A stretch of DNA of 64,000 bases from Mesotaenium endlicherianum (taxonomy: Eukaryota): the NCBI GenBank assembly GCA_009602735.1, contig WELA01001939.1:484846-548845 (forward strand). The letters are read 5' to 3'. The stretch's first letter is position 1. The number at the start of each line of letters is the position of its first letter. The translations under genes and the position numbers were made by a program. Shown in pieces: positions 9,442-62,100 of this stretch. The notes below the pieces were generated by a model. It saw only the letters and a program-made list of their open reading frames with translations. It was not told the DNA's origin and did no database searches.

Positions 9442-9630
9442 TACGCGAAACTAGCGAATTTCCTAATAAGTAACTTTCACTACGTGCAAAATTTTTTCAT
9501 TTTTTTGGGTCTTGCAAGGCGTCAACCTGTTACCTCTGGTGGGGGGCACAATAAGCCTTTTTGGAGGTTGCCACTTGCACCTAATTCAGAGTGTGCATGT
9601 GGGAATCTCATTAATAAATATATTTCTTGT

Positions 9631-10000
9631 TGTAATGAATCAATATTGTTGGTAGTATAATAGTCATTCAAATCGTAGTTAATTTAGTCAAGTCTGTTGA
9701 ACTCTAGTTAATACTAAATCTGTTGAACTTTTAATATAATTCAGCATAATGACTCAGCCAAGAGCAGCAGGCTAAGGTCAGCTATAAGTCAGCTTGCTGA
9801 CACATTCTTGCACAGCCAACTGACTGCCGTACTCGATATCAGTGAATTGCCTAGCTATGCAACCAAGTGTGACATACTAGATGAGTAGCCAGATGACACC
9901 CTTGGGTGGATGGCGATTTGGGTCGATGGAGATGGCTATGGGTTTGGTTAGCCGAGGTCCTACCGACTTGGTTAACTCCCGGGTAGGGGGTGCAATCGTC
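9631..10000 (+). mobile_element. 5' half of split solo LTR B3 (family B)
   Basis: Starts TGTAATGAATC and matches the B LTR up to ...CCCGGGTAGG-GGTGCAATCG. Preceded by CTTGT (9626-9630), which is repeated after 31865. Confidence 0.85.
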
Positions 10001-10025: not shown

Positions 10026-10745
10026 TGAAATGAATCGACTTACCAAATAGGCGATTAACAATTAATAAAGATCTTTATATCAGCAAGTAATCTTTATGGT
10101 ATTTTTCCATTAAATGATTTAACAGCAAAGGACAACACACTAGCAGTGAATAATACTCGTAAGTCAAATGCAAGTAAACTAGCATCAATAATGCAATCAG
10201 TACACTCCTACATAAGCAAGGTTGGAAGACAGTGCGTATCAATGGCTTCTCGCCTTGGATTCAGATCTCTCTCAGTAAGTTGTACAGGAGAGTTGGCCTC
10301 GTTTTCAAATGCGGAACTCGAGAGCAATACCTAGCATATGTACACGGAATGAGTTTACTGTTCAACGGCCAGTGCGATTGCACCGCCTACCCGGGAGTTA
10401 ACCACGTTGGTAGGACCTCGATTAACCAAATCCACTGCCATCTTCCATCATCCCGAATCGTCATCCATCATAGGGATGTCATCTGGCCATTCATCTAGCA
10501 TACCACACTTAGATATCTATCGAGGCAGTTCGCAGCTACCGAGTACGGAATTCAGCTGGCGGTCAAAGAATGAGTCTGCAAGCTGACTTGAGTTGACTTC
10601 AGCCTGCTGCCCCCGGCTAAGTCCTTAAATTGATAATTACATAACGTCCAGCAGACTCAATACTACATAAAGTTCAGCAGACTGAACTTAATTAACTATC
10701 ATATTTAAATAAATACTATATCTACCTATATGCTGATTTATTACA
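10026..10745 (-). repeat. 3' LTR of B2
   Basis: TGAAATGAATC...GATTTATTACA on the + strand, adjacent to the PPT at 10746-10760. Confidence 0.93.
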
Positions 10746-10857
10746 ATCCCTCCAACTTAACTTGTTGTCGCCTCGACAACATTAAACTGCAGTAGTTTTT
10801 AATCAGGGAACTGAACCTGACCAGCCTCCCCCACTGACTGCCTCTTCAGCCTGTCCT

Positions 10858-12524
10858 CTACGGGGTTGTTCCTGGTGCTTCAGGATCAGGAGACTGAGAT
10901 CTGGACCTAGATTTGGACTGCCCTCTAGGTCTGTCAGCTGGCCTTCTAAAGAATCCCGTTTGTTCTAAAGTTGGACCTCAAGGAGAACGAAGGATGGTAG
11001 CCTGCTCTTCAACCACTTGGGTGTTGATCCCCACATAGACAGGTATTTTAGTAGGATGCTGAAATACATTGGCAAGAGGTACATGCTCCTGAGCGAAGGA
11101 AGAGGCTGGCATACCTCTGGCCACCCCGCGTGTCCCTTTTCTAACACCCTGTCGTCTGGGAATTTTTGCCTTTGTCTGCTGCCAAGTACAGTCAGATAAG
11201 CTTCTTCCCCTGCTTGGGCAGGTGGGCTGGGGGAGCGAGTGCGAGGTTCAGACACCTCCAGGGCCGGGGTCAAATGCCATATTCCTGATCTTGGCTCCTG
11301 AGGAAGCCCCGCTCTTGCCTGCCCCTGGGTGTCCTGAGTACCAGCTCCTGATGCTTCTCCTCTACCTTGTTCTTCTTCCTCATCCTCCTCATCTTCCTCC
11401 TCTGAGAGGGTAGGAGTCTCGTCCACTAAGACGTCCTGCTCCCTGGTAGACATGGAGTAGTCTACTGACCTCCCTTTCTTAAGGCGCGCCGGAGGTTGCT
11501 TGGCCTTCAACCTGCTGATATCTATCCGGCCTGCATTCTTCGCCCATTTGACGAAGGCATGCTTTCCCTTAGAGAAGTAGTTTCTCCCCCTCCTCCTGTG
11601 CTCTTTGGTCTCTGCATTCATATTGCTAAGGCAGCCATTCAGCCTGGGGTCCCAAGGGGCAATGTGAGGTGGTAGGATGAGGTAGCCGTCCAGGCCATAG
11701 TGGAAGTCATCCGGTTGGGCTCGGTCACACTCCTGCTTTTTGTTTGTGACGGTCATCCACCTCCAGTCTGTTGGCTGCTGGTAGTACTGGGGTCCATGCT
11801 CAGCCTTCCTCAGTTTACACGGGAACCAGTGGGGAGAGAACATCTGCTGTCCAGCTTCCTTGGCGAAGTACTCCCAGCTCCTTCTCTCAACTTCATTATA
11901 AGCTGGCAGTAGTGTGTGGTAGAATTCCGTATTCTTAAAGCTATCGGGCCGCATGCTCACCATCTTGATGAGAGTCTGATCTCCTACTATTCTCGGTATT
12001 GGAATCGGCTTGTTCTCTGAATCATCTGCAAGGTACCGGGCCTGCTCTGCTGTATAGCCCACCATCTTGGCATAATCTTTGTAGAGGACCACACCAGTGT
12101 GTGTCTCAATGTACCTATCCAGTGCTGCAGCTCCTTCCCTCTGTAGCAGTGTTGTCTGTTCCAGCTTGTTGATCTCCTGGGCTGCCAGCAATGCTTCCTT
12201 CAGGTTATCAAAGTTTTGGCCACCCACCACAGTATACCTGTAAGTGGCCAAGCTCTTCTGCCTGTCCGCTTCAGCCTTTTTCCTTCTCTTCTCCGCTTCT
12301 TCTTGTTGTTTCTTCTGTCTCTCCTCCTCAGCTTTCCTGAGGTTTTTCGCTTTTTAATCCTTCTTCCTCTGTGCTTCTTCTGCCGCCTCTTGTTGTCGGC
12401 GGACCTTTTCTTGTTCTCTCCTGGTGAGGGACGTCGCCGCCAGCTCCTTCTGGTATTGCTCCATTGTCCTCCTGGCTTCTTCTGCCTTGCACTTTCTGTC
12501 CTCCTTTTGTGTGGTGGGAGCCAT
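10858..12524 (-). pseudogene. Disrupted copy of the family-B extra 3' ORF
   Basis: Collinear with 14275-15951. Premature TAA at 12354-12356 and a frameshift near 11140. Core protein sequence is nearly identical to the B1 copy. Confidence 0.85.
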
Positions 12525-12777
12525 CCTGCACATGTAACCAGGGCACAAGTTAGTAGGATATCGACCTTTGTCATAGGAATTGCAGGAAGGAAGTAATTTC
12601 GTATTAGTATGGTGGATTCGCTCCTGTTTACCTTACAGGGTGATTGCTAGGAGTTGACGTAGTTGCGGTGCGCTAGACATAAACGTATAAATGTGTTTTA
12701 AGGTGCGTTAAGTGATGTATTGCTGTGCGAGGCCCTTTTTCCTTCCGCCCGAGGTGCTTTATGTGGGCCAGGCTGTC

Positions 12778-12853
12778 CCATCTGTCACTATGCTGACACT
12801 TAGGATTCACATAATCGTTCCATCTGTCACTATGCTGACACTTAGGGTTCACA
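12778..12853. repeat. 42-bp period tandem duplication in the B2 pol-to-extra-ORF spacer
   Basis: CCATCTGTCACTATGCTGACACTTAGG(A/G)TTCACA at 12778 and 12820. Absent from B1. Confidence 0.9.
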
Positions 12854-12960
12854 CAACTGTCCCTTTCTTGCTTTCGCACACTAACTGTCATATATTTTCC
12901 CCTCCAACTTAAATGGAGACAGAACCTCCTGTCACCTTCCTGTGTCAACTGAAATGACCG

Positions 12961-13416
12961 TTATGGAGGGGCTCCAGCCGCCCGAAGGTGGAACCGTTTC
13001 AACGCCCCTTTGGCATTGGTGTCCCCAAAGGCATCGTAACCCTTCCATCGAGTGAGGTACTTCATGACATATTTAGACGATCGACGGACCGAGCGCGCGT
13101 CTAAAATCTCCTCAACCTCATATCCCTCACGGTCACCGTCCCGGACAGCGGGGACCGGTCCCGTTTGGACAGGTAACCGACCTGTGAACAGTGTGTCCCC
13201 TTTGATGTTTGGTTCCAAGGACACACTAAAGACCGGATGACCCTTGTATTCTGCTGACATGTTAAGTTTGTAAGCATTCTGACCGACACGGCGCACCACC
13301 GAATATGGACCGACCCAGACAGTACCAAGCTTTTTCTTGACCACACCAGAGTGCTGAGAATGGAGTTTGACCAAATCGCCCTCAGAAAAGGTCAGTTCTC
13401 GACGGTATTGATTAGC
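12961..13416 (-). pseudogene. pol: Integrase C-terminus and chromodomain of B2 pol (downstream of the B1 insertion)
   Basis: VWVGPYSVV...YEVEEILDAR...YLTRWKGYD, with small deletions relative to B1. Continues the IN sequence that stops at 22288. Confidence 0.9.
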
Positions 13417-14161
13417 TGAAATGAATCGACTTACCAAATAGGCGATTAACAATTAATAAAGATCTTTATATCAGCAAGTAATCTTTATGGTATTTCCGTT
13501 AACTCGTTAAACGGCAAAGGACAATATACTAGCAGGGAATACTACTCGTCAGTCAAATGAGAGTAAACTAGCATCAATAATGCAAATCAGTAAACTCATA
13601 CATAAGCAAGGTTAGAAGACAGTGCGTATCAATGGCTTCTCGCCTTGGATTCAGATCTCTCTCAGTAAGCTGTACAAGAGAGTTGGTCTCGTTTCCGAAT
13701 GCCGAACTCGAGAGCAATGCCTAGCATATGTACATGGAATGAGTTTACTGTTCAACGGTCAGTGCGATGGCACCGCCTACCCGGGAGTTAACCACGTTGG
13801 TAGGACCTCGGTTAACCAAATCCACCGCCATCTCCCATCATCCCGAATAGCCATCCATCATAGGGATGTCATCTGGCCATTCATCTAGCATATCGCACTT
13901 AGATGCATATCGAGGCAGTTCGCTGCTACCGAGTACGGAAGTCAGCTGGCTGTCAAAGAATGTGTCAGCAAGCTGACTTAAGTTGACTTCAGCCTGCTGC
14001 TTTTGGCCGAGTCATTAAACTGATAATTATGTAAAGTCCAGCAGACTGATTATTAACTAAAGTTCAGCAGACTGACTACTAACTAAAGTTCAGCAGGCTG
14101 AACTAAATTAACTATTATATTTAAATGAATATTATATCTACTAATATACTGATTCATTACA
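13417..14161 (-). repeat. 3' LTR of B1 (745 bp)
   Basis: TGAAATGAATC...GATTCATTACA. Highly similar to 21517-22287. Confidence 0.95.
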
Positions 14162-14176
14162 ATCCCTCCAACTTAA
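14162..14176 (-). promoter_or_regulatory. Polypurine tract of B1 (TTAAGTTGGAGGGAT)
   Basis: Purine-rich tract abutting the 3' LTR. Same sequence in B2 at 10746-10760. Confidence 0.85.
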
Positions 14177-14274
14177 CTTGTTGTCGCCTCGACAACATTA
14201 AACTGCAAAAGCTTTAAATAAAGAAACTGACCCTGACCAGCCTCCCTTACTGACTATCTTTTCAGCCTGTCACC

Positions 14275-15951
14275 TTAAGGGGTGGTTCCTGGGGCTTCAG
14301 GATCAGGGGACGGAGATCTGGACCTAGATCTGGACAGCCCTCTAGGTCTGTCAGCTGGCCTTCTAAAGAACCCGGTTTGCTCTAAAGTTGGACCTCGAGG
14401 AGAACGAAGGATGGTAGCCTGCTCTTCAACCACTTGGGTGTTGATGCCCACATAGACAGGCATTCCAGTAGGATGCTGAAATACATTGGCTAGAGGTACA
14501 TGCCCCTGAGCGGAGGGGGAGGCTGGCATACCTCTGGCCCACCCGCGTGTCCCTCTTCTGGCACCCCTGTCCTCTGGGGATTTCTGCCTGTGTCTGCTGC
14601 CCAGTACAGTCAGATCAGCTTCTTCCCCTGCTTGGGCAGGTGGGCTGGGGGAGCGAGCGCGGGGTCCAGTTGTCGCCATAACGGGGATCACATTCCACAC
14701 ACCTGATCGTGGTTCTTTAGGAAGTGCCACTGCCTGTCCCTGGGTATCCTGAGTACCTGCTGCTGATGCTTCTCCTCTGCCTTGTTCTTCTTCCTCATCC
14801 TCCTCATCCTCCTCCTCGGAGAGAGTAGGGGTCTCGTCCACTAAGTCGTCCTGCTCCCTAGTAGACATGGAGTAGTCTACCGACCTCCCTTTCTTAGGGC
14901 GCGCTGGAGGTTGCTTGGCCTTCAGCCTACTGATATCTATCCGGCCTGCATTCTTTGCCCATTTGACAAAGGCATGCTTTCCCTTAGAGAAGTAGTCTCT
15001 TCCCCTCCTCCTATGTTCCTTGGTCTCTGCATTCATATTGCTCAGGCATCCATTCAGCCTGGGGTCCCAAGGGGCAATGTGAGGTGGTAGGATGAGATAG
15101 CCGTCTAGGCCATAGTGGAAGTCATCCGGTTGGGCTCGGTCACACTCCTGCTTCTTATTTGTGACGGTCATCCACCTCCAGTCTGTTGGCTGCTGGTAGT
15201 ACTGGGGTCCGTGCTCAGCCTTCCTCAGTTTACACGGGAACCAGTGGGGAGAGAACATCTGCTGTCCTGCTTCCCTGGCCAAGTACTCCCAGCTCCTTCT
15301 CTCAACTTCATTGTAAGCTGGCAGGAGTGTGAGGTAGAATACCGTATCCTTAAAGCTATCGGGCCGCATGCTCACCATCCGGATGAGTCTCTGATCTCCC
15401 ACTATTCCCGGTATGGGGACCGGCTTGTCCTCTGAATCATCTGCGAGATACCGGGCCTGCTCTGCTGTATAGCCCACCATCTTAGCATAATCTTCGTAAA
15501 GGACCACGCCGGTGTGTGTCTCGATGTACCTGTCCAGTGCTGTAGCTCCTTCCTTCTGTAGCAGTGTTGTCTGTTCCAGCCTGTTGATCTCCTGGGCTGC
15601 CAGCAATGCTTCCTTCAGGTTATCGAAGTTTTGGCCACCCACCACAGTATACCTGTAAGTGGCCAAGCTCTTCTGTCTGTCCGCTTCAATCTTTTTTCTT
15701 TTCTCCTCTTCTGCCGCTGCCGCTTCTTCTTGCTGTTTCTTCTGTCTCTCCTCCTCAGCCTTCCTGAGGTTTTCCGCTTCCTGATCCTTCTTCCTCTGTG
15801 CCTCTTCTGCCGCCTCTTGTTGTTTGCGGACCCTTTCTTGTTCTCTCCTGGTGAGGGACGTCGCCGCCAGCTCCTTCTGGTATTGCTCCATTGTCCTCCT
15901 GGCTTCTTCTGCCTTGCGCTTTCTGTCCTCCTTTTGTGTGGTGGGCGCCAT
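14275..15951 (-). CDS. Extra (env-position) ORF of chromovirus B1, 558 aa, unknown function
   Basis: Open from ATG 15951 (MAPTTQKEDRK) to TAA. Charged coiled-coil-like N-terminus, aromatic-rich central region, acidic run and R/S/P-rich tail. Conserved in B2 with mostly synonymous changes where I compared the two. Confidence 0.85.
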   Translation of the reverse strand: MAPTTQKEDRKRKAEEARRTMEQYQKELAATSLTRREQERVRKQQEAAEEAQRKKDQEAENLRKAEEERQKKQQEEAAAAEEEKRKKIEADRQKSLATYRYTVVGGQNFDNLKEALLAAQEINRLEQTTLLQKEGATALDRYIETHTGVVLYEDYAKMVGYTAEQARYLADDSEDKPVPIPGIVGDQRLIRMVSMRPDSFKDTVFYLTLLPAYNEVERRSWEYLAREAGQQMFSPHWFPCKLRKAEHGPQYYQQPTDWRWMTVTNKKQECDRAQPDDFHYGLDGYLILPPHIAPWDPRLNGCLSNMNAETKEHRRRGRDYFSKGKHAFVKWAKNAGRIDISRLKAKQPPARPKKGRSVDYSMSTREQDDLVDETPTLSEEEDEEDEEEEQGRGEASAAGTQDTQGQAVALPKEPRSGVWNVIPVMATTGPRARSPSPPAQAGEEADLTVLGSRHRQKSPEDRGARRGTRGWARGMPASPSAQGHVPLANVFQHPTGMPVYVGINTQVVEEQATILRSPRGPTLEQTGFFRRPADRPRGLSRSRSRSPSPDPEAPGTTP

Positions 15952-16218
15952 CCTGCACATGTAACCAGGGCACAAGTTAGTAGGATATGGACCTTTGTCA
16001 TAGGGATTGCAGGAAGTATGTTAGTATTTAGTATAGTGGCTTCGCTGCTGTTTACCTTACAGGATGATTGCTAAAAGTTGACGTAGTTGCGATGCGCTAC
16101 ACATAAACGTAAGAGTGTGTTTTTATCGCTCTCGCTCACTTACTGTCATATAGTTTCCCCTCCAACTTAAATGGAGACAGGACCGCCTGTCACCTTCCCG
16201 TGTCAACTGAAATGACAG

Positions 16219-19200
16219 TTATGGAGGGACTCCAGCGGCCCGAAGGTGGAACCGTGTCAACGCCCCTTTGGCATTGGTCAAGTGGTCCTTAAACTCCCAA
16301 GTGTCCCCAGAGGCATCGTAACCCTTCCATCGAATGAGGTATTTCATGACATATTTAGACGATCGACGGACCGAGCGAGCGTCTAAAATCTCATCGACCT
16401 CATATTCCTCAGGGTCGCCGTCCCGGACAGCGGGGACCGGTCCCGGTTGGACAGGGAACCGACCTGTGAACAGTGTATCACCTTTGATGTACGGTTCCAG
16501 GAAGGAGACATTAAAGACCGGGTGCCCCTTGTATTCAGCTGACATGTTCAGTTTGTAAGCATTCTGACCGACACGACGGACCACCGAATATGGACCGACC
16601 CAGACAGGGCCAAGCTTTTTCTTGACCACACCAGGGAGGTACAGGTGCTGAGAATGCAGTTTGACTAAATCCCCCTTGGAAAATGTCAGTTCCCGACGGT
16701 GTTGATTAGCGTATTTTTGTTGGTTTTCTTGGGCCGTGTGCAAGTTTCGTTGGACTTCTGACAGGGTGTCAGCAAACTCCTGAGTTAACTGGAGGGAGAC
16801 CGGGTTGTCAATCCCTTCAGGGTGAGTTAAAGATTCCCCTAGCACATCTAGAGGAGACTTAGGGACTCTACCCAGGCTGAGTTCAAAAGGAGTTTTGCCC
16901 GTTGACGCGTGCACCGCACTGTTGACCGCAAACTGAATTTGAGGCAACAGGTCATCCCAATTATCTTGTTTTTGGTTAATATATGCTCTCAGCACCTCCT
17001 GCAGAACTCGGTTAGTTCTTTCAGTCTGCCCATCAGTCTGAGGGTGGTTTGCTGTGCTGAGCAGCTGTTTGACTCCCATTAACCCCATTAAAGCTCTCCA
17101 GAACTTAGAGGTGAATTTTGAGTCTCTGTCTGAGATGATATTAGAAGGGAGCCCATGTTGGCATACTACATGGTTGTAAAACTGTCTCGCTGTTTCGAGT
17201 GCAGTCACTTTGACAGTTGTGGGGATAAAAATGACCATTTTTGTCAGTTTATCCACGACTACCAGTATTGAATCATGCCCGTTGGCAGTTCTTGGTAGTG
17301 AGACCACCCAGTCCATGGATATAGTTTCCCAGCGTCCCGCTGGGATGGGTAGCGGTTGCAAGAGACCTCCGGGTGGTGTGTGCCGAGACTTATTTCTCTG
17401 ACACTGGTCACAGGACTTGACATATTTCAAGACCTCCCGGGGTAACCCCTCCCAATGATAATGTTTTGCCAGTTTGCCAACAGTTTTGGCCTGCCCCAAA
17501 TGTCCACCCAGGAGACTGTCATGAGCTTGACTCAGTAAGAGAGACCTTATTTCCAAGTTATTAGGAATGACCAGCTTCAGCCTGCCTGAAGTGGTTTCAG
17601 TCACCCAGACCCCTCCCTTGAGCTTATACCCGAGTGCAGTAGCACGACACACACCAGTAGTGGGGCTGGGCTCAAATGTTGGGTCAGAAAGGTAGGCTTT
17701 CCTAAGTTGTTCAAGGAAGGACTTTTTCACCTTTAGTGAAGTGAGTGCACACAGGACTTTATCTACAGCATGCTGACTAAAGTTCCTTTCTTGCAAGTCA
17801 GGTCTTCTAGAGAGTGCATCAGCAGGATTCAACTTCCCTGGTTTGTAGTCGATCTGGACTTGGAACTGCTCCAGCATCTGGCTCCAGCGGTTCTCCCTCC
17901 TCGACAGCTTGGACTTCTTCTGAAAGTGGGTCAGAGCTAGATGATCTGTAATCACCTTAAAAGCTTTACCATGTAAGTATGCTCTCCACTGTTTGAGTAC
18001 ATGAATGATAGCTAGCAGCTCTTTATCATGCACTGAGTAATTAATCTCCGCTGGATTAAATTTCATAGACTCATACAACACAGGATGCCACTCCTGCCGT
18101 ACCTTACCATCCTTTGTGGTTTTGTCAGCAGGCTGCAACAAAATAGCACCCATGGCAAAATCAGAGGCATCAGTAACCACCTGCACCGGTTTGCTGGGGT
18201 CATACACGGCTAGCACTGGGGCAGAACAAAGGGCATCTTTAAGGGTCTGGAAGGCAGCCTGCTGCTCTTCCCCCCACACATACCCGATGTCTTTCTTAGT
18301 AAGGTCAGTCAGTTTACTGGCCTTTGTGGAATAATTCTCAATAAATCTCCTATAGTAGTTAGCCAACCCGAGGAAGGATCTAACTTCAGAGACAGACTGT
18401 GGTACTGGCCAGTCCCTTATGGTCTGGACTTTCTTAGGATCCACACTGATGCCCTCTTTACTGACAACGTGGCCTAAGAATTCAATACTTTCCTTAAAGA
18501 AATCACACTTGCTCATTTTAGCATACAAGTGATTTTTCCGCAGAGTGTCCAGCACTTTCTTTAAGTGTTCAGTGTGCTGAGCTTCATCTTTAGAGAAAAT
18601 TAAAATATCATCCAGGAAAACTTGCACAAACTTATCCAAATAAGGTCTGAAAATGTCATTCATAGCACCCATAAAGGTAGCAGGAGCATTAGTCAGTCCA
18701 AATGGCATCACGTTGAACTCATAGTGTCCATAACGTGTGCGGAAAGCAGTCTTGTGTTCATCCCCCTCAGCAATTCTGATTTGATGATAACCACTCTTGA
18801 GATCTATCTTACTGAACACCTTAGCGCCAGACAGGGTATCAAGCAAGTCCTCGATTCTGGGTAAAGCATACTTGTTCTTTACTGTAATTCTGTTCAGGGC
18901 TCTGTAATCCACACACATCCGCATACTGCCATCCTTTTTCTTAACAAATAGGATAGGTGCGCCGTACGGTGATTTACTGGGAGAAATGTAACCATTTTCC
19001 TCCAGCTCTGCAATCTGTGTTTTCAACTCCTCGCTCTCCAAATAAGACAAGCCATAAGTGCGTTGCCAGGGTGGCTGGCTACCAGGTAATAGATCAATCC
19101 TATGATCTACTTCCCTTTTAGGGGGTAGTCCTGGAGGCATGTTAAACACATCAGTGTACTGAGCAACAATTTTTGCAGCAGTAGGGTGCTCCGGAGGGCT

Positions 19201-20028
19201 TACCTTTTTCTCAACCACTTCTTCAGGTTGAGGAGGTACCTCTCTTAGCAGCAGACAGAACATTCTGTCTTCCTTCTGGTTCCAGCTTTTGACGAACTCC
19301 ATTGCATTCAGCAACTTGCATCCTTCTGGAAGCCTCTTCTTTTCCTTCATTTGCCATCCACACAGGACAAGAGGAAGAGCACTGGTGGGTGCCAAGTCAG
19401 TCTGCCCATCACTGGCTCCTCTCACTTTAACTGTACCTCTGCTCCAACACACTTCAGCTTGATGTCTATTAAGCCAGGACCTGCCTAGCACGAGATCATA
19501 AAAGCCAGTGTTGAGTACCTCAAATGTAAGCGTTTCAGTTAGAACTGCAATGCCAGAACCTAACTGGACCTCAATAGGCTTGGTTATAACTCCTCCCGGG
19601 ATACTTGAGGCATCTCCAAGGAATATTTTTCTATTCCCTTGGGTGACAGTAGGCAGCCTTAGCCGCTTAACTAAGTCCTTGTGAATAAAAGTATGTGACG
19701 CCCCTCCGTCAACAAATGCCCTCACCTTCCTACCTGCAATCATGCAATGCAGTAGGATAGGGGGGACTGTCTTTTCCTGACTTTCGCATTGTTCTCCTGA
19801 CGTAGCAAAGAAATGTTGGACATCAGGTGGAACAAGAGCATCCAGAGTGTGCACTCTCTGGACGTCTATATTACTGATGGTCTCCTTTATCTGTTTGTCA
19901 GGCATGCATAGTGAATCCAGTTCAGCAGGACCCATAATACCTGCTACGAGGGCAGCTAGTGACGACTCACTATCTCTAGCATCCTCACAGTCAGTAGACT
20001 GGATTACTGACTGTTGCTGTCTTTTAAA
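16219..20028 (-). CDS. pol: pol polyprotein of B1 (PR-RT-RNase H-IN-chromodomain), probably translated by -1 frameshift from gag
   Basis: Continuous frame with FVDGGA (PR), FLDD (RT), TDASD/ELLAII/ITDH (RH), H-H-C-C, MDWV/SDRD/TER (IN), GPY and chromodomain YEVDEIL...YLIRWKGY...DTWE. The frame is open upstream of ATG 19935 to the slippery site. Confidence 0.95.
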
Positions 20029-21482
20029 GGCTGGTCTTTTCTCTCGACCTTAGGCAGGTGCTTGACCGGACACTGTTCTCTGTAGTGGCCTTTCTGCTGA
20101 CAATGGTAGCAAGTAGATTTTGCTGAGGCTGGTCTCGGCTTAGTCCTACCACCACCCCTTCCATAGCCACCTCGAGAGGGACCACCTCTACCTCTAGACT
20201 GAATAGCATTGTACTCATACTCATATTCATCACCCTGATTATCCTCAGCCTGGTCTCCTTCAACTGCATTGTAGGAACCGTGGGGCTTTTTGACAATCTT
20301 AGACACCAAAGCGTTACTCTGGCGCTTGTGATTGAACTGCTGCTGATCCCAGGCGTCAGCATCCTGGATCAAGTCAGCCAGTTTCTCATACTTTTTCTCA
20401 GCAAAATGACCAGAGACCTCGGATTTCAAGCCATACCTGAAGTATGCTATCCTATACCGTTCTGGCAAATCAGGCTGCTTCATCATGTTCTCTTGGAACT
20501 TTTGAGCAAACTCAGCAACTGAAGTGGTCTGCTTCAGTGTCAGGGAGATCATCGCATAGATAGCTTTCTCCTGCTGGTTGATGACATCAAACTTCTCATG
20601 CAACTTCTCGACAAACTCTACCCACGTAGGGTCACCGAGTTGCCGAGCCTTACGCTCTTCCTTCCAGTAAAGCCACCAGTCTGCGGCACTGCCTTTCAGT
20701 AGCGCACCGGTGTGCCTGACCTTCTCGTAATCTTGCAGTTCTGGGTAGTTCTCCAGCCACTGCTCAACATCCGCGAGAAACTTGATCAGGTAATATTTTC
20801 TGTTTCCCTCAGGATCATAGTCCTGGGGAGGTTTCGGCTTGGGCTTACTAGGCCCTCGGCCACCACCACTAGTGGTGTGAGACCCCAGTTGGTCTCTGTC
20901 CCGGAGTAGGGACATTATGATTCTTTTGTCCTCCTGCTGGGACTGATACATGGTCGCCATTTGCGACTGCATCTGAACGAACAATGCTCCCAAGTCTACA
21001 TTTTGGGGTGGTAGATTAGCAAATGCAGCAGCAGCATTGGCATCTACTCGCTGAGTAGTGTCCTCAACAATCCCTCTTGCTCCTGCAGCAGCAATTCCTG
21101 CCGCATTCAGCCGGTCACGTATTTGACCTAGGGGTACATTGAGTTGTACGGCAGGAGGTGGGTTCAGAACATTGGCCCTTGATGCCATAAGTTCTTCAAC
21201 AGTGCGCTCGTCAGCTGGCTGTCCTTCCCTCCTTTGTATATCTTCAGCGGCCTTTGCTACTTGTTCAGCTTCTAGTCTGGCTATCTCCTCCTCAGCTTGC
21301 TGAGCTGCGACTGAGGCAATAGCAGCTGCCTCATCTGCAGCCTCCCTAGCTGCAGTATCCGCTACTGCTTCCGAATAGGTACGGTTTCCCGCTACATGGC
21401 TTTCCGCCTGGTTTTCGACATTCTCGTTATCCTGGTTCTCCATGTCTCGGGAGTTGCTAGTTTGAGACCTTGTCCTTACCAT
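20004..21482 (-). CDS. gag: gag of B1 (492 aa, CCHC zinc knuckle)
   Basis: ATG about 20 nt after the [28 protein letters not shown]-rich segment and [14 protein letters not shown]. Confidence 0.95.
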
Positions 21483-21503
21483 ACAAAGAAGACTGTGATA
21501 ACT

Positions 21504-21515
21504 GCTCCGATACCA
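21504..21515 (-). promoter_or_regulatory. Primer binding site of B1 (TGGTATCGGAGC, tRNA-iMet-like)
   Basis: 1 nt inside the 5' LTR boundary. One mismatch to TGGTATCAGAGC. Confidence 0.85.
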
Positions 21516-21516
21516 C

Positions 21517-22287
21517 TGAAATGAATCGACTTACCAAATAGGCGATTAACAATTAATAAAGATCTTTATATCAGCAAGTAATCTTTATGGTAATTTCCGT
21601 TAACTGGTTAAACGGCAAAGGACAATACACTAGCAGTGAATAATACTCGTAAGTCAAATGCGAGTAAACTAGCATCAATAATGCAAATCAGTAAACTCAT
21701 ACATAAGCAAGGTTAGAAGACAGTGCGTATCAATGGCTTCTCGCCTTGGATTCAGATCTCTCTCAGTAAGCTGTACAAGAGAGTTGGCCTCGTTTCCGAA
21801 TGCCGAACTCGAGAGCAATGCCTAGCATATGTACATGGAATGAGTTTACTGTTCAACGGTCAGTGCGATGGCACCGCCTACCCGGGAGTTAACCACGTTG
21901 GTAGGACCTCGGTTAACCAAATCCACCGCCATCTCCCATCATCCCGAATAGCCATCCATCATGGGGATGTCATCTGGCCATTCATCTAGCAGGTGGTACT
22001 TAGATGCATATCAAGGCAGTTCGCTGCTACCGAGCACGGAAGTCAGCTGGCTGTCAAAGAATGTGTCAGCAAGCTGACTTAAGTTGACTTCAGCCTGCTG
22101 CTTTTGGCCGAGTCATTAAACTGATAATTATGTAAAGTCCAGCAGACTGATTATTACTAAAGTTCAGCAGACTGACTATTAACTAAAGTTCAGCAGACTG
22201 ACTACTAACTAAAGTTCAGCAGGCTGAACTAAATTAACTATTATATTTAAATGAATATTATATCTACTAATATACTGATTCATTATA
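21517..22287 (-). repeat. 5' LTR of B1 (771 bp)
   Basis: Copy of 13417-14161 with one extra 26-bp repeat unit. Terminal TG mutated to TA. Confidence 0.95.
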
Positions 22288-25200
22288 TTAGCGTACTTTT
22301 GTTGGTTTTCTTGGGCTTTGTGCAGATTGTGTTGTACTTTTAACAGGATGTCAGCAAACTCTTGAGTTAACTGGAGGGAGACCGGATTGTCAATCCCTTC
22401 AGGGTGTGTTAAAGACTCCCCCAAGACATCCAAAGGAGACTTAGGGACTCTACCCAGGCTTAGTTCAAAAGGACTCTTGCCCGTTGACGCGTGCACCGCA
22501 TTGTTGACCGCAAACTGGATTTGAGGTAACAGGTCATCCCAATTATCTTGTTTTTGGTTAATATAGGCTCTCAGTACCTCTTGCAGAACTCGGCTAGTTC
22601 TTTCAGTCTGCCCATCAGTCCGAGGGTGGTTTGGTGTGCTGAGCAGCTGCTTGACTCCCATTAACCCCATTAAAGCTTTACTGAACTTAGAGGTAAATTT
22701 CGAGTCTCTGTCTGAGATTATATTAGAGGGGAGCCCATGTTGGCATACTACATGGTTGTAAAACTGTCTCGCTGTTTCGAGTGCAGTTACTTTGACGATT
22801 GTAGGGATGAAAAGGACCATTTTTGTCAGTTTATCCACGACTACCAGTATCGAATCATGCCCATTGGCAGTTCGTGGCAGTGTGACCACCCAGTCCATGG
22901 ATATTGTTTCCCGGCGGCCAGCTGTGATGGGCAGCAGTTGTAAGAGGCCCCCCGGTGGTGTGTGCCTAGACTTATTCTTTTGACACTGGTCACAAGACTT
23001 AACGTATTTCAAGACCTCCCGAGGTAATCCCTCCTAATGATAGTGTTTTGCCAGTTTGCCAACAATTTTGGCCTGCCCCAAATGCCCACCCAGCAAACTG
23101 TCATGTACTTGACTCAATAAAAGGGATCTTATTTCCAAGTTATTAGGAATGACCAGCTTCATCCTGCCTGAAGTGGTTTCAGTCACCCAAACCCCTCCCT
23201 TGAGCTTATACCCGAGTGCTATAGCACGACACATACCAGTAGTTGGGCTGGGCTCAAATGTTGGGTCAGAAAGGTAGGCTTTCCTAAGTTCTTCAAGGAA
23301 GGACTTCTTCACCTTTAGTGAAGTGAGTGCACACAGGACTTTATCTACAGCATATTGACTAAAGTTCCTTTCTTGCAAGTCAGGTCTTCTAGAGAGTGCA
23401 TCAGCAGGATTCAACTTCCCTGGTTTGTAGTCGATCTGGACTTGAAACTGCTCCAGCATCTGGCTCCAGCGGTTCTCCCTCCTCGACAGCTTGGACTTCT
23501 TCTGAAAGTGAGTCAGAGCTAGATGATATGTAATCACCTTAAAAGCTTTACCATGTAAGTATGCTCTCCACTGTTAGAGCACATGAACGATAGCTAGCAG
23601 CTCTTTATCATGCACTGGGTAATTAATCTCCGCTGGATTAAATTTCATAGATTCATACAACACAGGATGCCACTCCTGCCGTACCTTACCATTCTTTGTG
23701 GTTTTGTCAGCAGGCTGCAACAAAATAGCACCCATGGCAAAGTCAGAGGCATCAGTAACCACCTGCACCGGTTTGCTGGGGTCATACACGGCTAGCACTG
23801 GGGCAGAACAAAGGGCATCTTTAAGGGTCTGGAAGGCAGCCTGCTGCTCTTCCCCCCACACATACCCGATGTCTTTCTTAGTAAGGTCAGTCAGTTTACT
23901 GGCCTTTGTGGAATAATTCTCAATAAATCTCCTATAGTAGTTAGCCAACCCGAGGAAGGATCTAACTTCAGAGACAGACTGTGGTACTGGCTAGTCCCTT
24001 ATGGTCTGGACTTTCTTAGGATCCACACTGATGCCCTCTTTACTGACAACGTGGCCTAAGAATTCAATACTTTCCTTAAAGAAATCACACTTGCTCATTT
24101 TAGCATTTAAGTGATTTCTTCTCAGTGTCCATGACTGTCTCTAAGTGTTCAGCGTGCTGAGCTTCATCTTTAGTGAAAATTAAAATATCATCTAGGAAAA
24201 CTTGCACAAACTTATCCAAATAAGGTCTGAAAATGTCATTCATAGCATCCATGAAGGTTGCGGGAGCATTAGTCAGTCCAAATGGCATCATGCTGAACTC
24301 ATAGTGCCCATAACGTGTGCGGAAGGCAGTCTTGTGTTCATCCCCCTCAGCAATTCTGATTTGATGATAACCACTTTTGAGATCTATCTTACTGAACACC
24401 TTAGCACCAGACAGGGTATCAAGCAAGTCCTCAATTTTGGGTAAAGCATACTTGTTTTTTACTGTGATTTCGTTCAGAGCTCTGTAATCCACACACATCT
24501 GCATACTGCCATCATTTTTCTTGACAAATAGAATGGGTGCCCCGTAAGGTGATTTACTGGGGGAAATATAACCATTTTCCTCAAGCTCTGCAATCTGTGT
24601 TTTCAACTCCTCGCTCTCCACATAAGACAAGCCATAAGTGCGTTGCCAAGGTGGCTGACTCCCAGGTAATAGATCAATCCTATGATCTACTTCCCTCTTA
24701 GGGGGTAGTCCTGGAGGCATATTAAATACATCCGTGTACTGAGCAACAATTTTTGCAGCAGTAGGGTGCTCCGGAGGGCTTACCTTTTTCTCAACCACTT
24801 CTTCAGGTTGAGGAGGTACCTCTCTTAGCAGCAGACAGAACATTCTGTCTTCCTTCTGGTTCCAGCTTTTGACGAACTCCATTGCATTCAGCAACTTGCA
24901 TCCTTCTGGAAGCCTCTTCTTTTCCTTCATTTGCCATCCACACAGGACAAGAGGAAGAGCACTGGTGGGTGCCAAGTTGGTCTGCCCATCGCTGGCTCCT
25001 CTCACTTAAACTGTACCTCTGCTCCAACACACTTCAGCTTGATGTCTATTAAGCCAGGACCTGCCTAGCACGAGATCATAAAAGCCAGTGTTGAGTACCT
25101 CAAATGTAAGCGTTTCAGTTAGAACTGCAATGCCAGAACCTAACTGGACCTCAATAGGCTTGGTTATAGCTCCTCCCGAGATACGTGAGGCATCTCCAAG

Positions 25201-27055
25201 GAATATTTTTCTATTCTCTTGGGTGACAGTAGGCAGCCTTAGCCGCTTAACTAAGTCCTTGTGGATAAAAGTATGTGACGCCCCTCCGTCAACAAATGCC
25301 CTCACCTTCCTACCTGCAATCATGCAATGCAGTAGGATAGGGGGTATTGTCTTTTCTTGACTTTCGCATTGTTCTCCTGACTTAGCAAAGAAATGTTGGA
25401 CATCAGGTGGAACAAGAGCATCCAGAGTGTNTAGTGTGCACTCTCTGGATGTCTATATTGTTGATGGTCTCCTTTATCTGGTTGTCAAGCATGCATAGTG
25501 AATCCAGTTCAGCAGGACCCATAATACCTGCTACGAGGGCAGCTAGTGACAACTCACTATCTCTAGCCTCCTCACAGTCAGTAGACTGGATTACTGACTG
25601 TTGCTGGTCTTTTCTCTCGACCTTAGGCAGGTGCTTGACCGGACACTGTTCTCTGAAGTGGCCTTTCTGCTGACAATGGTAGCAAGTAGATTTTGCTGAG
25701 GCTGGTCTCGGTCTAGTCCTACCACCACCCCTTCCATAGCCACCTCGAGAGGAACCACCTCTACCTCTAGACTGAATAGCATTGTACTCATACTCATATT
25801 CATCACCCTGATTATCCTCAACGTGGTCTCCTTCAACTGCATTGTAGGAACCGTGGGGCTTGTTGAAAATCTTAGACACCAAAGCGTTACTCTGGCGCTT
25901 GTGATTGAACTGCCGCTGATCCCAGGCATCAGCATCCTGGATCAAGTCAGCCAGTTTCTCATACTTTTTCTCAGCAAAATGACCAGAGACTTCGAATTCC
26001 AAGCCATACCTGAAGTATGCTATCCTATACCGTTATGGCAAGTCTGGCTGTTTCATCATGTTATCCTGGAACTTTTGAGCAAACTCAGCAATTGAAGTGG
26101 TCTGCTTCAGTGTCAGGGAGATCATCGCATAGATAGCTTTCTCCTGCTGGTTGATGTCATCAAACTTCTCATGCAACTTCGCGACAAACTCTACCCACGT
26201 AGGGTCACCGAATTGCTGAGCCTTACGCTCTCCTTTCCAGTATAGCCACCAGTCTGCGGCACTGCCTTTCAGTAGTGCACCAGTGTGCCTGACCTTCTCG
26301 TAATCCTGCAGTTTTGGGTAGTTCTCCAGCCACTACTCAACATCAGCGAGAAACTTGATCAGGTAATACTTTTTGTTCCCCTCAGGATCATAATCCTGGG
26401 GAGATTTTGACTTGGGCTTACTAGGCCCTCTGCCACCACCACCCGTGGCTTGAGAACCCTGTTGGTCTCGGTCTCGCAGTAGAGACATTATGATTCTTGT
26501 GTCATCCTGTTGAGACTGGTACATGCTCGTCATTTGCGATTGCATTTGTACAAACAATGCTCCCAAATCCGCACTCTGAGGTGGAAGTCTAGCGAATGCA
26601 GCAGTAGCAGTGGCATCGACTCGCTGAGTAGTGTCCTCAACAGTCCCTCTCGCTCCTGCAGCAGCAATTCCTGCCGCATTCAACCGGTCACGTATTTGAC
26701 CTAGGGGTACATTGAGTTGTACAGCAGGAGGTGGATTAAGAACATTGGCCCTTGATGCCATAAGTTCTTCAACAGTGCACTCGTCCGCTGGCTGTCCTTC
26801 CCTCCTTTCTGTATCTTCAGCGGCCTTTGCTAATTGTTCAGCTTCTAATCTGGCTCTCTCCTCCTCAGCTTGCTGTGCTGCGACTGCGGCAATAGCAGCT
26901 GCCTCATCTGCAGCCTCTCTAGCTGCAGTATCTGCCACTACTTCAGAATAGGTACGGATTCCCGCTACATGGCTTTCCGCCTGGTTATCGACATTCTCGT
27001 CATCCTGGTTCTCCATGTCTCGAGAGTTGCTAGTTTGAGACCTTGTTCTTACCAT
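22288..27055 (-). pseudogene. gag-pol of B2 (disrupted)
   Basis: Collinear with B1 gag and pol. Several in-frame stops (near 26333, 23991, 23574, 23034) and frameshifts. Confidence 0.92.
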
Positions 27056-27089
27056 ACAAAGAAGACTGTGATAACTGCTTCGATACCAT

Positions 27090-27809
27090 TGAAATGAATC
27101 AACTTACCAAAGTAGGCGATTAACAATTAATAAAGATCTTTATATCAGCAAGTAATCTTTATGGTATTTTTTTGTTAATTGATTTAACAGCAAAGGACAA
27201 CACACTAGCTGCGAATAATACTCGTAAGTCAAATGCAAGTAAACTAGCATCAATAATGCAATCAGTAAACTCATACATAAGCAAGGTTGGAAGACAGTGC
27301 GTATCAATGGCTTCTCGCCTTGGATTCAGATCTCTCTCAGTAAGCTGTACAAGAGAGTTGGCCTCGTTTCCGTATGCGGAACTCGAGAGCAGTACCTAGC
27401 ATATGTACACGGAATGAGTTTACTGTTCAACGGCCAGTGCGATGGCACAGCCTACCCAGGAGTTAACCACGTTGGTAGGACCTCGATTAACCAAATCCAC
27501 CGCCATCTCCCATCATTCCGAATCGCCATCTATCATAGGCATGTCATCTGGGCATTCATCTAGCATACCACACTTAGATGTCTATCGAGGCAGTTCGCTG
27601 CTACCGAGTACGAAGTCAGCTGGCTGTCAAAGAATGAGTCAGCAAGCTGACTTGAGTTGACTTTAGCCTGCTGCTTCCGACTGAGTCCTTAAATTGATAA
27701 TTATATAAAGTCGAGCAGGCTCAATACTACATAAAGTTCAGCAGACTGAACTTAATTAACAATTATATTTAGATGAATATTATATCTACCCATATACTGA
27801 TTTATTGCA
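27090..27809 (-). repeat. 5' LTR of B2
   Basis: TGAAATGAATC...TTTATTGCA, preceded by the PBS (27077-27088) and followed by TSD CCTGG. Confidence 0.93.
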
Positions 27810-31272: not shown

Positions 31273-31865
31273 CGTTGAACAGGTAACTCATTCCATGTAC
31301 ATAGGCTAGGTTATGCTCTTGAGTTCGGCATTCGAAAACGAGGCCAAACCTTTGTATCGCTTATTAAGAGAATATCTGAATCCAAGGCTGCAAAGTTGTT
31401 ACACGAACAACTTCTTGCCTTGCTTATGTATGAGTTTACTGATTGCATGATTGAAACTAGTTTACTCGCATTTGATTGTGAGTCTTGCAAATGCTAGTGG
31501 CGGAGTCTTTTCGCTGGTTACCTAGTTCTAAAATACTCCCGTACAGCCTCTTTTGGCCGAATAGTACGTATTGCGATACTCTGTATCGTGATACTCCGTA
31601 TTACGCCTATGACTGGATCTTTCGATTTATTCCGATTTATAGTCGATTTATTCCACCAACACTCACGTATTTTGGCGTATTCAATGTACAGGTTTGACTC
31701 TCGCGTGTTGTTCGCGTGGCGATTCCGTACACACATATGCGGCGTATCCAAATATCATAACTAGGGCGGATTAATAAGTTAACCTGAAAACACCATAAAG
31801 ATTATTTACTGATATAAGTATCCTTATTAATTGTTAATCGCCCATCGATAAGTCGATTCATTTCA
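31273..31865 (+). mobile_element. 3' half of split solo LTR B3
   Basis: Resumes the B LTR at CGTTGAACAG..AACTCATTCCATGTACATA, ends GTCGATTCATTTCA, and is followed by CTTGT (31866-31870), matching 9626-9630. Confidence 0.85.
31521..31765. mobile_element. MITE, hAT-like, inserted in LTR B3
   Basis: 245 bp absent from other B LTRs. Terminal inverted repeat CCTAGTT/AACTAGG, 8-bp flanks GCTGGTTA/GCGGATTA (2 mismatches), and repeated CGTA/CCGA-type subterminal motifs. Confidence 0.65.
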
Positions 31866-35231: not shown

Positions 35232-35316
<85 letters not shown>

Positions 35317-47199: not shown

Positions 47200-47254
<55 letters not shown>

Positions 47255-59153: not shown

Positions 59154-62100
59154 TCATTTTTTCCTCTTTCTTGTTCTTCCAAGCTGCCTCCAAGGGGTCT
59201 TCTGCTGCTTCTTGATGGTGGCAGGCTGCCTCCCTGAAGTTGTCGAGCTTCTAGTAGAGAGACTTGGGGCTGGTCCAAGATGGGGGTTGGCGGCATGGAA
59301 GCGCTTCAACTTTCTTTGAACTTTGTCAAGATAGTGCGCCGCCACCCAACTATTTTCCGAATCTTGATATCCCTTCCACTTGATCAAGTATTGCTGCTGT
59401 CTCCTGAAATTTCTCATAGCCATTATGTCTTTCACTTCGTACTCCAAATGATCATCCACTATTGTTGGGGCTAATGGGGTCGTCACACGACCTGGGAACT
59501 TGTTGTCGGGTTGCACATATGGCTTGAAGAGGGAAGCGTGGAATACGGGATCGATGTGCATAGTCTGGGGAAGTTCTAGCTTGAAAGCAACGGGGTCGAC
59601 TTGCTCGATAATCTTGAAGAGTCCCAAATACTTGGGAGAGAACTTGCTGCCGGCAAGCCTGTTGTTCAGGGAAATGTTCTTGGATGATAGTAACACGTTG
59701 TCACCCACTCTGTACGTAATTTCTCTTCTGGATCTGTTCACCACTCTTGCTTGAGCATCTTGCGCGTGTTGTAGAGCTTTCTTCGCTGCTGTAAGGGCTG
59801 CTTTAAATGTCTCCATAAAATCTGTGTCTGCAGATACTTCATCATGGCCAGTCGTGAAGCTCAGTGGCGCGGTCGGACGGAAGCCATAGTTGAAGAAGAA
59901 TGGGGACTCTTGGGTTGAGGCTTGCGTAGTGTTGTTGTAGGCAAACTCCAAGGGGGTCACGTACATGTCCCAGTCTTGCTCCAGGTGAGACACATAGGCC
60001 TTTAGAGAGGTCTTTAGGGTACAATTCATACGCTCAATTTGCCCATCTGATTGCGGGTGGTAGGCGGTAGACATATCCAGCGATGTACCCAAGTTCTTGA
60101 AGAGATTTTTCCAGAAATGGCTTGTGAATCTTGAATCTCTATCCGACACAATTCTTGATGGTAGTCCATGGAGTCGGAAGATGTTGTCAAAGATGAGTCT
60201 TGCAAGTTGTGGTGCTGTAGCCTTAGTCGTCGTGGGAATAAAATGAGCCATCTTGGTAAGTCTGTCCACCACCGTGAGTATTGCATTATGGCCTCGAGGT
60301 GTCACGGGCAGGTCCACGATAAGGTCCATTGAGATGTCCGTCCATTGTCTTTCGGGGATTGGTAGTGGTTGGAGGAGTCCTCCCGCCTTTTGCGATGATG
60401 GCTTGATTCTTTGGCATGTGTCACAGCTCCTGCAGTACTCCTTGACTTGCTTAGACATGCCTGGCCAACAATAAGTCCTAGCTAGAACGCCCGTGGTCCT
60501 TAGGATTCCAAAGTGTCCTCCAAGAGGGTTGTCGTGTGCTTCTCGTAGAAGCAAGAGTCGGAGGTCTAAGTCATTAGGAACACATCTCTGGTGTGATGAA
60601 TCAGTATATTAGTAGATATAACATTCATTTAAATACACTAGTTAATCATGTTCAGCCTGCTGAACTCTAGTTTAATAATCAGTTTGCTGGACTTTATATT
60701 TAATAGCAGTTTAATGACTCAGCCGGAAGCAGCAGGTTGAAGTCAACTTAAGTCAGCTTGCTGACACATTCTTTGACAGCCAGCTGACTTCCGTACTCGG
60801 TAGCAGCAAATTGCCTCAATATGCATCTAAGTATGATAGGCTAGATGAATGGCCAGATGACATCCCCATGATGGATGGCAATTCGGGATGATGGGAGATG
60901 GCGGTGGATTTGGTTAACCGAGATCCTACCAACGTGGTTAACTCCCGGGTAGGCGGTGCCATCGCACTGGCCGTTGAACAGTAAACTCATTCCATGTACA
61001 TATGCAAGGATTGCTCCCGAGTTCGGCATTCGGAAACGAGGCCAACTCTCTTGTACAGCTTACTGAGAGGAATCTGAATCCAAGGCGAGAAGCCATTGAT
61101 ACGCACTGTCTTCTAACCTTGCTTATGTATGAGTTTACTAAGTGCATTATTGATGCTAGTTTACTCGCATTTGATTTACGAGTATTGTTCGCTGCTAGTG
61201 TGTTGTCCTTTGTCGTTTAATCAGTTAACGGAAAATCCATAAAGATTACTTGCTGATATAAAGATCTTTATTAATTGTTAATCGCCTATTTGGTAAGTCG
61301 ATTTATTTCATCTGGCCCGTGTCTTGCCTCACCCAATAATTGCCTTCTTGCTTCTTGTATGGGTCCAAGACTGCTTCTCTGTTCTTGTAGTAAGGTTCTC
61401 TTTCATAGCCGGCTGAAAATTGAGCCTCCAGATCTGTCTTCAGGGATGTTATCACTGCGTTTAATTGCAGTCTTGAGAGGGGGTCAGCCGGGTTTGTCTT
61501 GCCGGGCTGGTACTGAAATGTGATGTTGTATTGTTGCAAGTATCCGCTCCATCTTGCTTGTCTCCTTGAGAGATACGGCTGCGTCTGAAGGTGCTTTAAC
61601 GCCTCGTGGTCCGTGGTGACCAGTACCTTGCGTCCTTCAACATAGCAGCGCCAAACCTTCAAGGCATGTACAATTGCCAATGCCTCTCGCTCCGTGGTTG
61701 TATAATTTTGCTCGGCTGGAATTAGCTTTCTTGACTCGTAGGCAATGGGCTGCAGTCCCTTGCCTTGGTCTTGAAGCAGGATTGCTCCAATTGCTTAGGA
61801 AGATGCATCGGTGATGACGTGGAAGGGCCAATCTGGGTTTGGACTTGGGAGTGTGAGCACCGGGGATGTCGTCAATCTTTGTTTCAGTTGTTGGATTGCT
61901 TCCTCCTCTTTCTTGGTCCAAACATATGGCTTGTCTTTCTTCAGTAGATCCGTGAGAGGGGCTGCTATGTGTGAGAAGCTCTGGATGAATCTCCTGTACC
62001 AATTGGCAAATCCCAAGAATGATTGGAGTTCTTTCTTGGTCGTGGGGGTTGGCCACTCCTCCACCACCGTGGTCTTCTTGGGGTCCATCTTGATGCCATC

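Follow-up and report, generated by a model that had tools for sequence, protein, structure and literature searches.

The locus described here raises the question of whether a 558-codon open reading frame that follows pol and precedes the 3’ LTR of a chromovirus is a gene in its own right and, if so, what it could do for the element that carries it. The frame (ORF3 from here on) occurs in both full elements of the window, that is, of the whole 64,000-nt stretch of Mesotaenium endlicherianum DNA that we analysed. The two elements, B1 and B2, are full chromodomain-bearing Ty3/Gypsy elements on the minus strand, and self-comparison assigns them to one family (family B), with B1 nested in the integrase of B2. 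Their parts, together with a solo LTR of the same family, are as follows.

10026..27809 (-): B2, the older full element, with LTRs at 27809-27090 and 10745-10026
21517..22287 (-): B1 5’ LTR (from junction sequences and self-comparison)
13417..14161 (-): B1 3’ LTR (from junction sequences)
22292-22288 and 13416-13412: B1 target-site duplication, 5 bp (from junction sequences)
U3 of the B1 5’ LTR (-): 26-bp tandem repeat, 3.7 copies
21504..21515 (-): primer-binding site, assigned by consensus to the initiator tRNA-Met type
20004..21482 (-): B1 gag, 492 aa, intact, with capsid and CCHC knuckle (ORF and Pfam)
19985..20030 (-): predicted -1 frameshift signal in the gag-pol overlap, a slippery heptamer followed by a 10-bp hairpin
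16219..19935 (-): B1 pol, PR-RT-RH-IN-SH3-chromodomain, intact (ORF and Pfam)
14179-14162 (-): B1 3’ polypurine tract with hairpin, directly ahead of the 3’ LTR
60592..61310 (+): family B solo LTR with a 5-bp target-site duplication, in a family A pol

By every structural test element B is a chromovirus: it has TG...CA ends (one B1 terminus reads TA, not TG), a 5-bp target-site duplication (B2 has its own), a primer-binding site and a polypurine tract, and gag is followed by domains in the order PR-RT-RH-IN and, in B1, by a C-terminal chromodomain (Pfam Chromo, E 2e-8). The LTR pairs are 2.0% diverged in B1 and 6.7% in B2. The B1 pol frame opens further upstream than listed above, overlapping the end of gag, and the slippery site of the predicted frameshift signal is gone from B2 through a 14-nt deletion. 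At the true polypurine tract, the hairpin has z scores of -2.5 and -2.35. Along the element (16222-21482 compared with 22287-27089), synonymous divergence between B1 and B2 ranges from 0.016 to 0.32, being 0.016 in the gag C-terminus, 0.04-0.05 in RH and PR and 0.23-0.32 in RT, IN and the gag N-terminus; because dS swings in this way between segments, we regard B1 and B2 as recombinant mosaics of subfamilies. Old LTR fragments related to family B, with ~77-82% identity, were also seen at 9628-9998 and 31273-31478, and these suggest that older B-like subfamilies exist in this genome and that B has resided there for a long time.

The initial annotation had described a sense ORF located after pol and before the 3’ LTR, intact in B1 and disrupted in B2, and this is what we found, with every motif that had been quoted for the protein present in the translation.

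14275..15951 (-): B1 ORF3, 558 aa, intact, in sense orientation with respect to the element
14917..15291 (-): ORF3 residues 221-345, its most tightly constrained block, dN/dS 0.04
10859..12524 (-): B2 copy of ORF3, disrupted after insertion, start at 12524

ORF3 lies inside the LTRs, 267 nt past the pol stop (16219) and 113 nt ahead of the 3’ LTR (14161-13417). Its product begins with a long charged helix (residues ~4-100), followed by a constrained core (96-345), a basic patch (351-356), an acidic run and an Arg/Gly/Ser/Pro-rich tail with an RS repeat at 540-549. Within the core, the block at residues 221-345 is rich in W, Y, H and C, carries a net charge of +7 and ends in a predicted basic helix (~311-334, low confidence). 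In the B2 copy, stops fall at codon 57 and at the position of codon 519, one base has been deleted near codon 462, and a net in-frame loss of 12 nt is seen near codons 78-84. The other family, A, has no ORF of this kind, as had been claimed; about 750 nt of non-coding sequence separate its pol from its LTR. The CpG o/e of ORF3 (0.40) equals that of pol, unlike that of the host genes (0.74-0.76), which indicates that ORF3 is an old resident of the element, and its codon use is likewise like that of pol and unlike that of host exons.

Comparison of the two copies by the Nei-Gojobori method gave a dN/dS of 0.21 for the whole of ORF3 and, for core codons 96-345, 31 synonymous versus 16 non-synonymous differences and a dN/dS of 0.12 (bootstrap interval 0.06-0.23, Fisher p 1e-11), a value well below 1 that bears out the earlier proposal of purifying selection, for the two copies on which it is based. 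Constraint is not even along the protein: dN/dS falls to 0.04 over residues 221-345 and is 0.08 over the basic-acidic stretch (346-400) and 0.25, with a wide interval, over the N-terminal helix. The tail had been said to diverge, and it is indeed the least constrained part, but it is not simply diverging, as its dN/dS read in the B1 frame is 0.43 (0.25-0.82). In the core stretch that had been compared by hand (15061-15170 versus 11646-11755), there are four differences in 110 nt, all synonymous and identical to the four codon pairs named at the time. Elsewhere in the element, dN/dS is 0.22 for gag, 0.16 for pol and 0.12 for each of RT and IN. A chance ORF is ruled out by the core value and its Fisher p, set against 1.17-2.44 in the non-ORF3 frames; the codon-aligned antisense frame is the exception at 0.18, but it carries 12 stops, which speaks against an antisense gene. 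On these codon comparisons, ORF3 is a real gene under selection, with a core as constrained as RT. Since the core dN of 0.028 is close to the dN of the low-dS segments (0.009-0.031), we infer that most core replacements arose as the inserted copies decayed, and that the active lineage was under stronger constraint than the 0.12 measured between two copies.

What kind of protein ORF3 encodes can be narrowed down in part. The claim that it is not an envelope protein held up: a hydropathy scan (maximum 0.73 over 19 residues) together with the charged N-terminus revealed neither a transmembrane segment nor a signal peptide, and the absence of both excludes an envelope. Two NLS-like motifs (84-87 and 351-356) are present, the most constrained block contains Arg-rich residues at 314-317, a loose export-signal pattern spans residues 278-288, and the tail contains RG and RS repeats. 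Inspection by eye showed no deaminase, dioxygenase or nuclease motif. Searches with the sequence gave no relative. An exact look-up in a protein collection returned nothing, a word-indexed search with residues 95-350 found none among 3576 candidates (of lengths 306-977 only), and phmmer against 1.84 billion representatives gave no hit at E 0.001 and hence no cellular homolog there. None of five pattern matches in viral contigs and none of 78 metagenome contigs were related to ORF3, and there was no match to the 80 related loci described below (tblastn) or to 120 pol relatives (blastp). PHROGs and PDB sequences gave chance-level rows only, and in Pfam and the ESM Atlas no movement or capsid protein matched above lead level. 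The best ESM Atlas score was 0.87, or, for residues 185-345, 0.91 and 0.90 (an unnamed cluster and FAM237, with 125 and 120 shared features); these fall under the level typical of true family hits and were taken as noise. The gag of B1 is also missing from the protein collection by exact look-up, so the host has probably not been annotated in it and the lack of close ORF3 relatives is partly a sampling gap.

The initial annotation had put forward a coiled-coil-like start followed by a probable globular core, and had proposed HHpred/Pfam and AlphaFold plus Foldseek as checks. Pfam yielded sub-threshold matches only, to Borrelia P83 (over the charged helix of ORF3), Obc1_C, HsdM_N and DUF6462, none near the curated cut-off. 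Single-sequence AlphaFold supported the first part of the layout, predicting the N-terminal helix with confidence (blocks between residues 11 and 90 reach pLDDT 73-92), but not the second, as in two runs residues 97-378 stayed at pLDDT <50. With core confidence this low, the Foldseek searches were uninformative.

The chromodomain of B1 has aromatic cage residues (as judged by eye), a form which, among plants, is limited to algae, mosses and club-mosses (PMC6317226; PMC3350952). Among named relatives of its pol, the top scores belong to Haematococcus and Closterium sequences, and Chara and seed plants rank lower (~38-54% identity); in an RT tree of 121 sequences, built without clade reference elements, B1 falls beside two unnamed metagenomic RTs with support 0.81, the deeper nodes being unsupported, and is assigned to no named clade (Chlamyvir, Tcn1, Tekay, Galadriel, Reina, CRM). 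For a wider comparison we used related loci with 35-55% identity to pol, the best 80 of those scanned together with one viral contig. Of the 80, 47 reached the chromodomain. We dropped three whose pol end had been mis-assigned on a permuted contig, and downstream sequence of at least 1.9 kb was present for 13 of the other 44. None of these 13 distant relatives carried a sense ORF of at least 200 aa within 3 kb, apart from gag (by Pfam) and pol (by eye). Three metagenomic chromovirus pol proteins (P0040, P0070 and P0074) are unusually long, at 1731-1916 aa, with no gag domain listed, and they have no blastp similarity to ORF3.

How does ORF3 compare with extra ORFs already on record? Thousands have been catalogued in plant retrotransposons; hardly any has been assigned a function, and doubts have been raised about their relevance, according to one survey (PMC6317226). 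There, a 3’ forward extra ORF of at least 250 codons was recorded in 18% of 782 Tekay elements and a 5’ one in 33%, while none is listed at the 3’ end for Chlamyvir (44 elements), Tcn1 (1500 elements), Galadriel, Reina or CRM. The rule that chromoviruses typically encode gag-pol only, on which the initial annotation relied, is therefore overstated in view of Tekay and stands for Chlamyvir and Tcn1, the algal and moss clades in the survey, as far as that listing goes; sunflower Tekay is also reported to have a conserved, NLS-bearing 5’ ORF (PMC11728184). ORF3 resembles the plant 3’ sense extra ORFs (eORF-3’F or aORF-3S, reviewed in PMC7264820), those of Tekay included, in its slot, its sense orientation, its length of over 250 codons, its conservation within a family and the absence of a known domain, which most of them share (PMC6317226; PMC7264820). 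It differs in having no Pfam match to the domains listed for plant eORFs (Athila ORF-1, plant mobile domain, Transposase_28, DUF390/601/1204/1633; PMC6317226), and it lacks the transmembrane segment of the Bagy2/Athila env-like ORFs; moreover, element B has an aromatic-cage chromodomain, as is typical of algal and moss clades, and the survey records no eORFs in those clades. The earlier description of ORF3 as unrecognised agrees with our Pfam comparison, in which no domain of the described extra-ORF families came near the cut-off. The 314 Ty3/gypsy eORF groups of the same survey, compared here through the domains listed for them, might include a relative.

Enzymatic modules form a further group. 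DAM and DNMT modules occur in algal chromovirus-like elements (10.64898/2026.05.21.726589) and DEDDy and GDSL ORF3s, made from spliced messages, in rotifer LTR elements (PMC5408684), and they are, like ORF3, extra coding units 3’ of or within pol. In contrast to such enzymes, ORF3 has no Pfam match to any of the four and no recognisable catalytic motif. In the mostly open-access literature covered, PMC2774666 included, we found no description of the ORF3 protein, nor of any algal chromovirus with a 3’ ORF that has neither a domain nor a membrane segment. Our verdict on the sequence comparisons is that the slot of ORF3 is of a known kind and its protein is one that this literature does not describe.

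The spacer between pol and ORF3 contains candidate signals for expression of the gene.

15949..15988 (-): predicted splice signals, with a TACTAAC branch point at 15982 and a 3’ splice-site AG that ends at 15953
16154..16180 (-): 27-nt block identical in B1 and B2, with a 13-nt copy of the polypurine tract (16170-16158)

The predicted acceptor, a GCAG, ends one base ahead of the ORF3 ATG and resembles the acceptors of the two adjoining host genes, which mostly have GCAG ends. A stretch of 40 nt running through the ATG is identical in B1 and B2 and is the longest identical run in the 90%-identical spacer (p ~0.01 under random placement of 27 mismatches in 270 nt); a branch point and acceptor so placed appeared in ~1% of resampled spacers. 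The ORF3 mRNA is thus likely to be spliced, judging from these predicted sites. Conserved donor candidates in B are many, the simplest being one near the 3’ end of the 5’ LTR (intron first base 21534) and one in the spacer (16055). Use of the former would yield an env-style subgenomic RNA with the ORF3 ATG as its first in-frame start, and use of the latter would point to an internal promoter. Within coding sequence of the pol frame there is a donor-like site at 19970; a GTAAGT at 16143 and a first TACTAAC at 16026 are not conserved in B2 and were dropped.

The internal polypurine copy, ~50 nt past the pol stop in both B1 and B2, may act as a second plus-strand primer; the hairpin ahead of it is not significant (z -1.04 and -0.24). 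In B1, a second 12-mer is common to the regions after pol and after ORF3, and shared words of at least 12 nt arose in only 14-20 of 20000 shuffling trials. These 13-nt and 12-nt words flanking the cassette suggest that ORF3 was gained through recombination at an old 3’ end. The spacer of B2 includes ~166 nt (12699-12864) that are missing from B1 and that contain a short direct repeat.

Family B also differs from family A in its CG and CWG content. The five B LTRs have 23-26 CG and 26-36 CWG sites each (o/e 0.75-0.84 and 1.45-1.9), while the A LTRs (1213-1690 and 57915-58400) have 1-2 CG and 0-1 CWG in ~447 nt; avoidance of CG and CHG sites in the LTR has been described as a strategy for ONSEN (PMC3907296). 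The difference extends to coding sequence: the ratio of CAG to CAA among Gln codons is 66:37 in B gag and pol versus 15:45 in A (p 2e-6), and CTG makes up 51 of 160 Leu codons in B versus 12 of 112 in A (p 4e-5). Among control codons, Glu shows no difference and Lys differs in the opposite direction. In 1-kb windows, B is like the host-gene region and unlike the other repeats, with a CWG o/e of at least 1.4 in 16 of 18 windows versus 10 of 46 elsewhere, all 10 of them in the host-gene region at 33-54 kb. None of the 80 related loci reached a CWG o/e of 1.7. One part of A, the ~750 nt of 3’ non-coding DNA at 58410-59150, which has no long ORF, is unlike the rest of that family at a CWG o/e of 1.55. 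At third positions in B, transitions were in excess at CG (26/84) but not at CHG (26/203; CHH 85/646), and in the B LTR pairs there was no excess at CG (4/78 versus 18/298) or at CHG; neither family had a significant recent CHG excess (p 0.08 for A, 0.32 for B). Streptophyte algae are reported to have CMT-like CHG methylation (PMC13398078). The footprint compares one family with one other and does not by itself assign a cause; horizontal arrival from a CG-only host would leave the same pattern. Of the 6-8-mers in the non-coding DNA of B, none reached significant enrichment (lowest corrected p ~0.07).

Taken with the motifs, these observations make it probable that ORF3 encodes an accessory factor that works in the nucleus on behalf of family B, in an anti-silencing or an RNA-export form. 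A nuclear accessory role was already the suggestion of the initial annotation; it fits the NLS-like, acidic and RS motifs, but it was offered there as an inference with three functions, among which we lean slightly to anti-silencing over RNA export. Our tentative preference, as one possibility among several, is for a factor acting in trans in the nucleus, through which family B would stay transcribed and escape CHG-type silencing. The mRNA would arise by joining the donor near the 5’ LTR end (or that of a short spacer intron) to the acceptor ahead of the ATG; the long charged helix would let the protein oligomerise, the two basic motifs would direct its nuclear import, the core, constrained and basic, might bind element DNA or nascent RNA, and the acidic run could contact histones or the transcription machinery. 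Family B would then be treated like a gene, with CG body methylation and no CHG, which would let its LTR retain the methylatable sites that have been lost from ORF3-less family A. In favour of this preference are the core constraint, the identical branch-point and acceptor block, the CG/CWG contrast between B and A, and the reported capture of epigenetic modules by algal chromovirus-like elements (10.64898/2026.05.21.726589). VANC of VANDAL elements offers a parallel as an accessory gene, with a family seemingly escaping non-CG methylation (here a compositional footprint), and VANDAL and B share a copy-number-variable tandem repeat in non-coding DNA, the 26-bp U3 repeat in B; yet VANC belongs to a DNA transposon and binds dense motif arrays, while B is a retrotransposon with its one U3 repeat and no significant 6-8-mer (PMC5735166), and Pfam, word-indexed and phmmer searches gave no homology of ORF3 to VANC. 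Against anti-silencing stand several points: no homolog or fold in the Pfam, PHROGs, PDB and protein searches ties ORF3 to a chromatin or methylation activity; there is no significant motif array, and the RG/RS tail favours RNA over DNA; the contrast is not uniform, given the A 3’ non-coding stretch, and the CHG excess is insignificant; and the contrast could be explained by arrival from a CHG-free host or by insertion preference, with ORF3 uninvolved. Set beside the possibility of horizontal arrival, the B-like LTR fragments, ~20% diverged (9628-9998 and 31273-31477), suggest long residence. A bolder version, in which ORF3 is an anti-silencing protein of a new family made from an env-style spliced RNA, the host treats B as genes and A survives by purging CG and CHG, is distinctly doubtful as a whole. 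If it were true, two opposite escape strategies would lie adjacent in one genome, and if anti-silencing in general were true, the VANC principle would extend to retrotransposons.

The RNA-export form, analogous to Rev and CERV, is a close rival, though somewhat unlikely in itself; it would have the product of a spliced RNA oligomerise on unspliced genomic RNA and license its export, or block its splicing or decay. The conserved acceptor, which turns the gag-pol region into a potential intron, would suit it, as would the Arg-rich stretch in the tightest block, the RG/RS tail, which is still constrained at dN/dS 0.43, the NLS-like motifs and the loose export pattern. Precedent comes from CERV of the C. 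elegans element Cer1, a spliced, nuclear protein of 517 aa that derives partly from an env-position ORF and is needed for genomic RNA export (PMC10309623); in the same source, CERV is like ORF3 in being a lineage-restricted, non-envelope product of the env position of a Ty3/Gypsy element, of similar size, with a helical N-terminus, an NLS-like motif and, as predicted for ORF3, a spliced mRNA, and unlike it in that its N-terminal half comes from gag exons, while ORF3 has its own ATG just past the acceptor. On the other hand, no sequence or fold links the proteins (Pfam, word-indexed, phmmer and PDB searches gave no homology to Rev, Rex or CERV), short NLS and NES patterns often arise by chance, constraint on ORF3 is lowest in the RS/RG tail, the spacer RNA has no unusually stable structure (z -0.56) and no Rfam match of note, and an export role alone leaves the CWG contrast unexplained. 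Were it correct, it would mean an independent origin of a ‘complex’ retroelement, probably in the green lineage. A cytoplasmic or particle accessory (an assembly scaffold, or a factor that brings the integration complex into the nucleus, targets integration or serves cell-to-cell movement) seems unlikely to us: the long N-terminal helix could be a spacer or tether, and plant env-position genes have been proposed as chaperones or in movement (PMC7264820), but there is no membrane segment, no movement or capsid match rose above lead level, and the NLS-like, acidic and RS motifs suit the nucleus better. Capture of a host gene, as a passenger or conserved for host benefit, is highly improbable; although the polypurine copy and the second shared 12-mer flank the cassette as 3’-end recombination would leave them, constraint equals that of RT even though both copies are in mobile elements, B2 decayed after insertion, CpG o/e and codon use are those of pol rather than of host exons, and no cellular homolog appeared among the 1.84 billion representatives. 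Among extra ORFs, ORF3 matters because it combines RT-level constraint, an intact young element, a predicted expression route and a family-level footprint that separates anti-silencing from RNA export.

The rest of the window holds other repeats and two intron-rich host genes. Family A copy 1 has a repeat inserted at 3815-5792, with a relative in inverted orientation at 29193-30446 (86-87% identity). The host genes, both on the plus strand, encode a calcineurin-like phosphoesterase (34700-40050; Pfam) and a Rad51/RecA-family protein (45620-54130; Pfam), RAD51B-like by eye, the latter with an intron near 50161 that seems to use a GC donor. The introns of both genes are rich in CA/TG and CTG microsatellites, and between the genes lies a MITE-like pair of 188-nt inverted repeat arms (43126-43313 and 43970-44157), 89% complementary and 656 nt apart.
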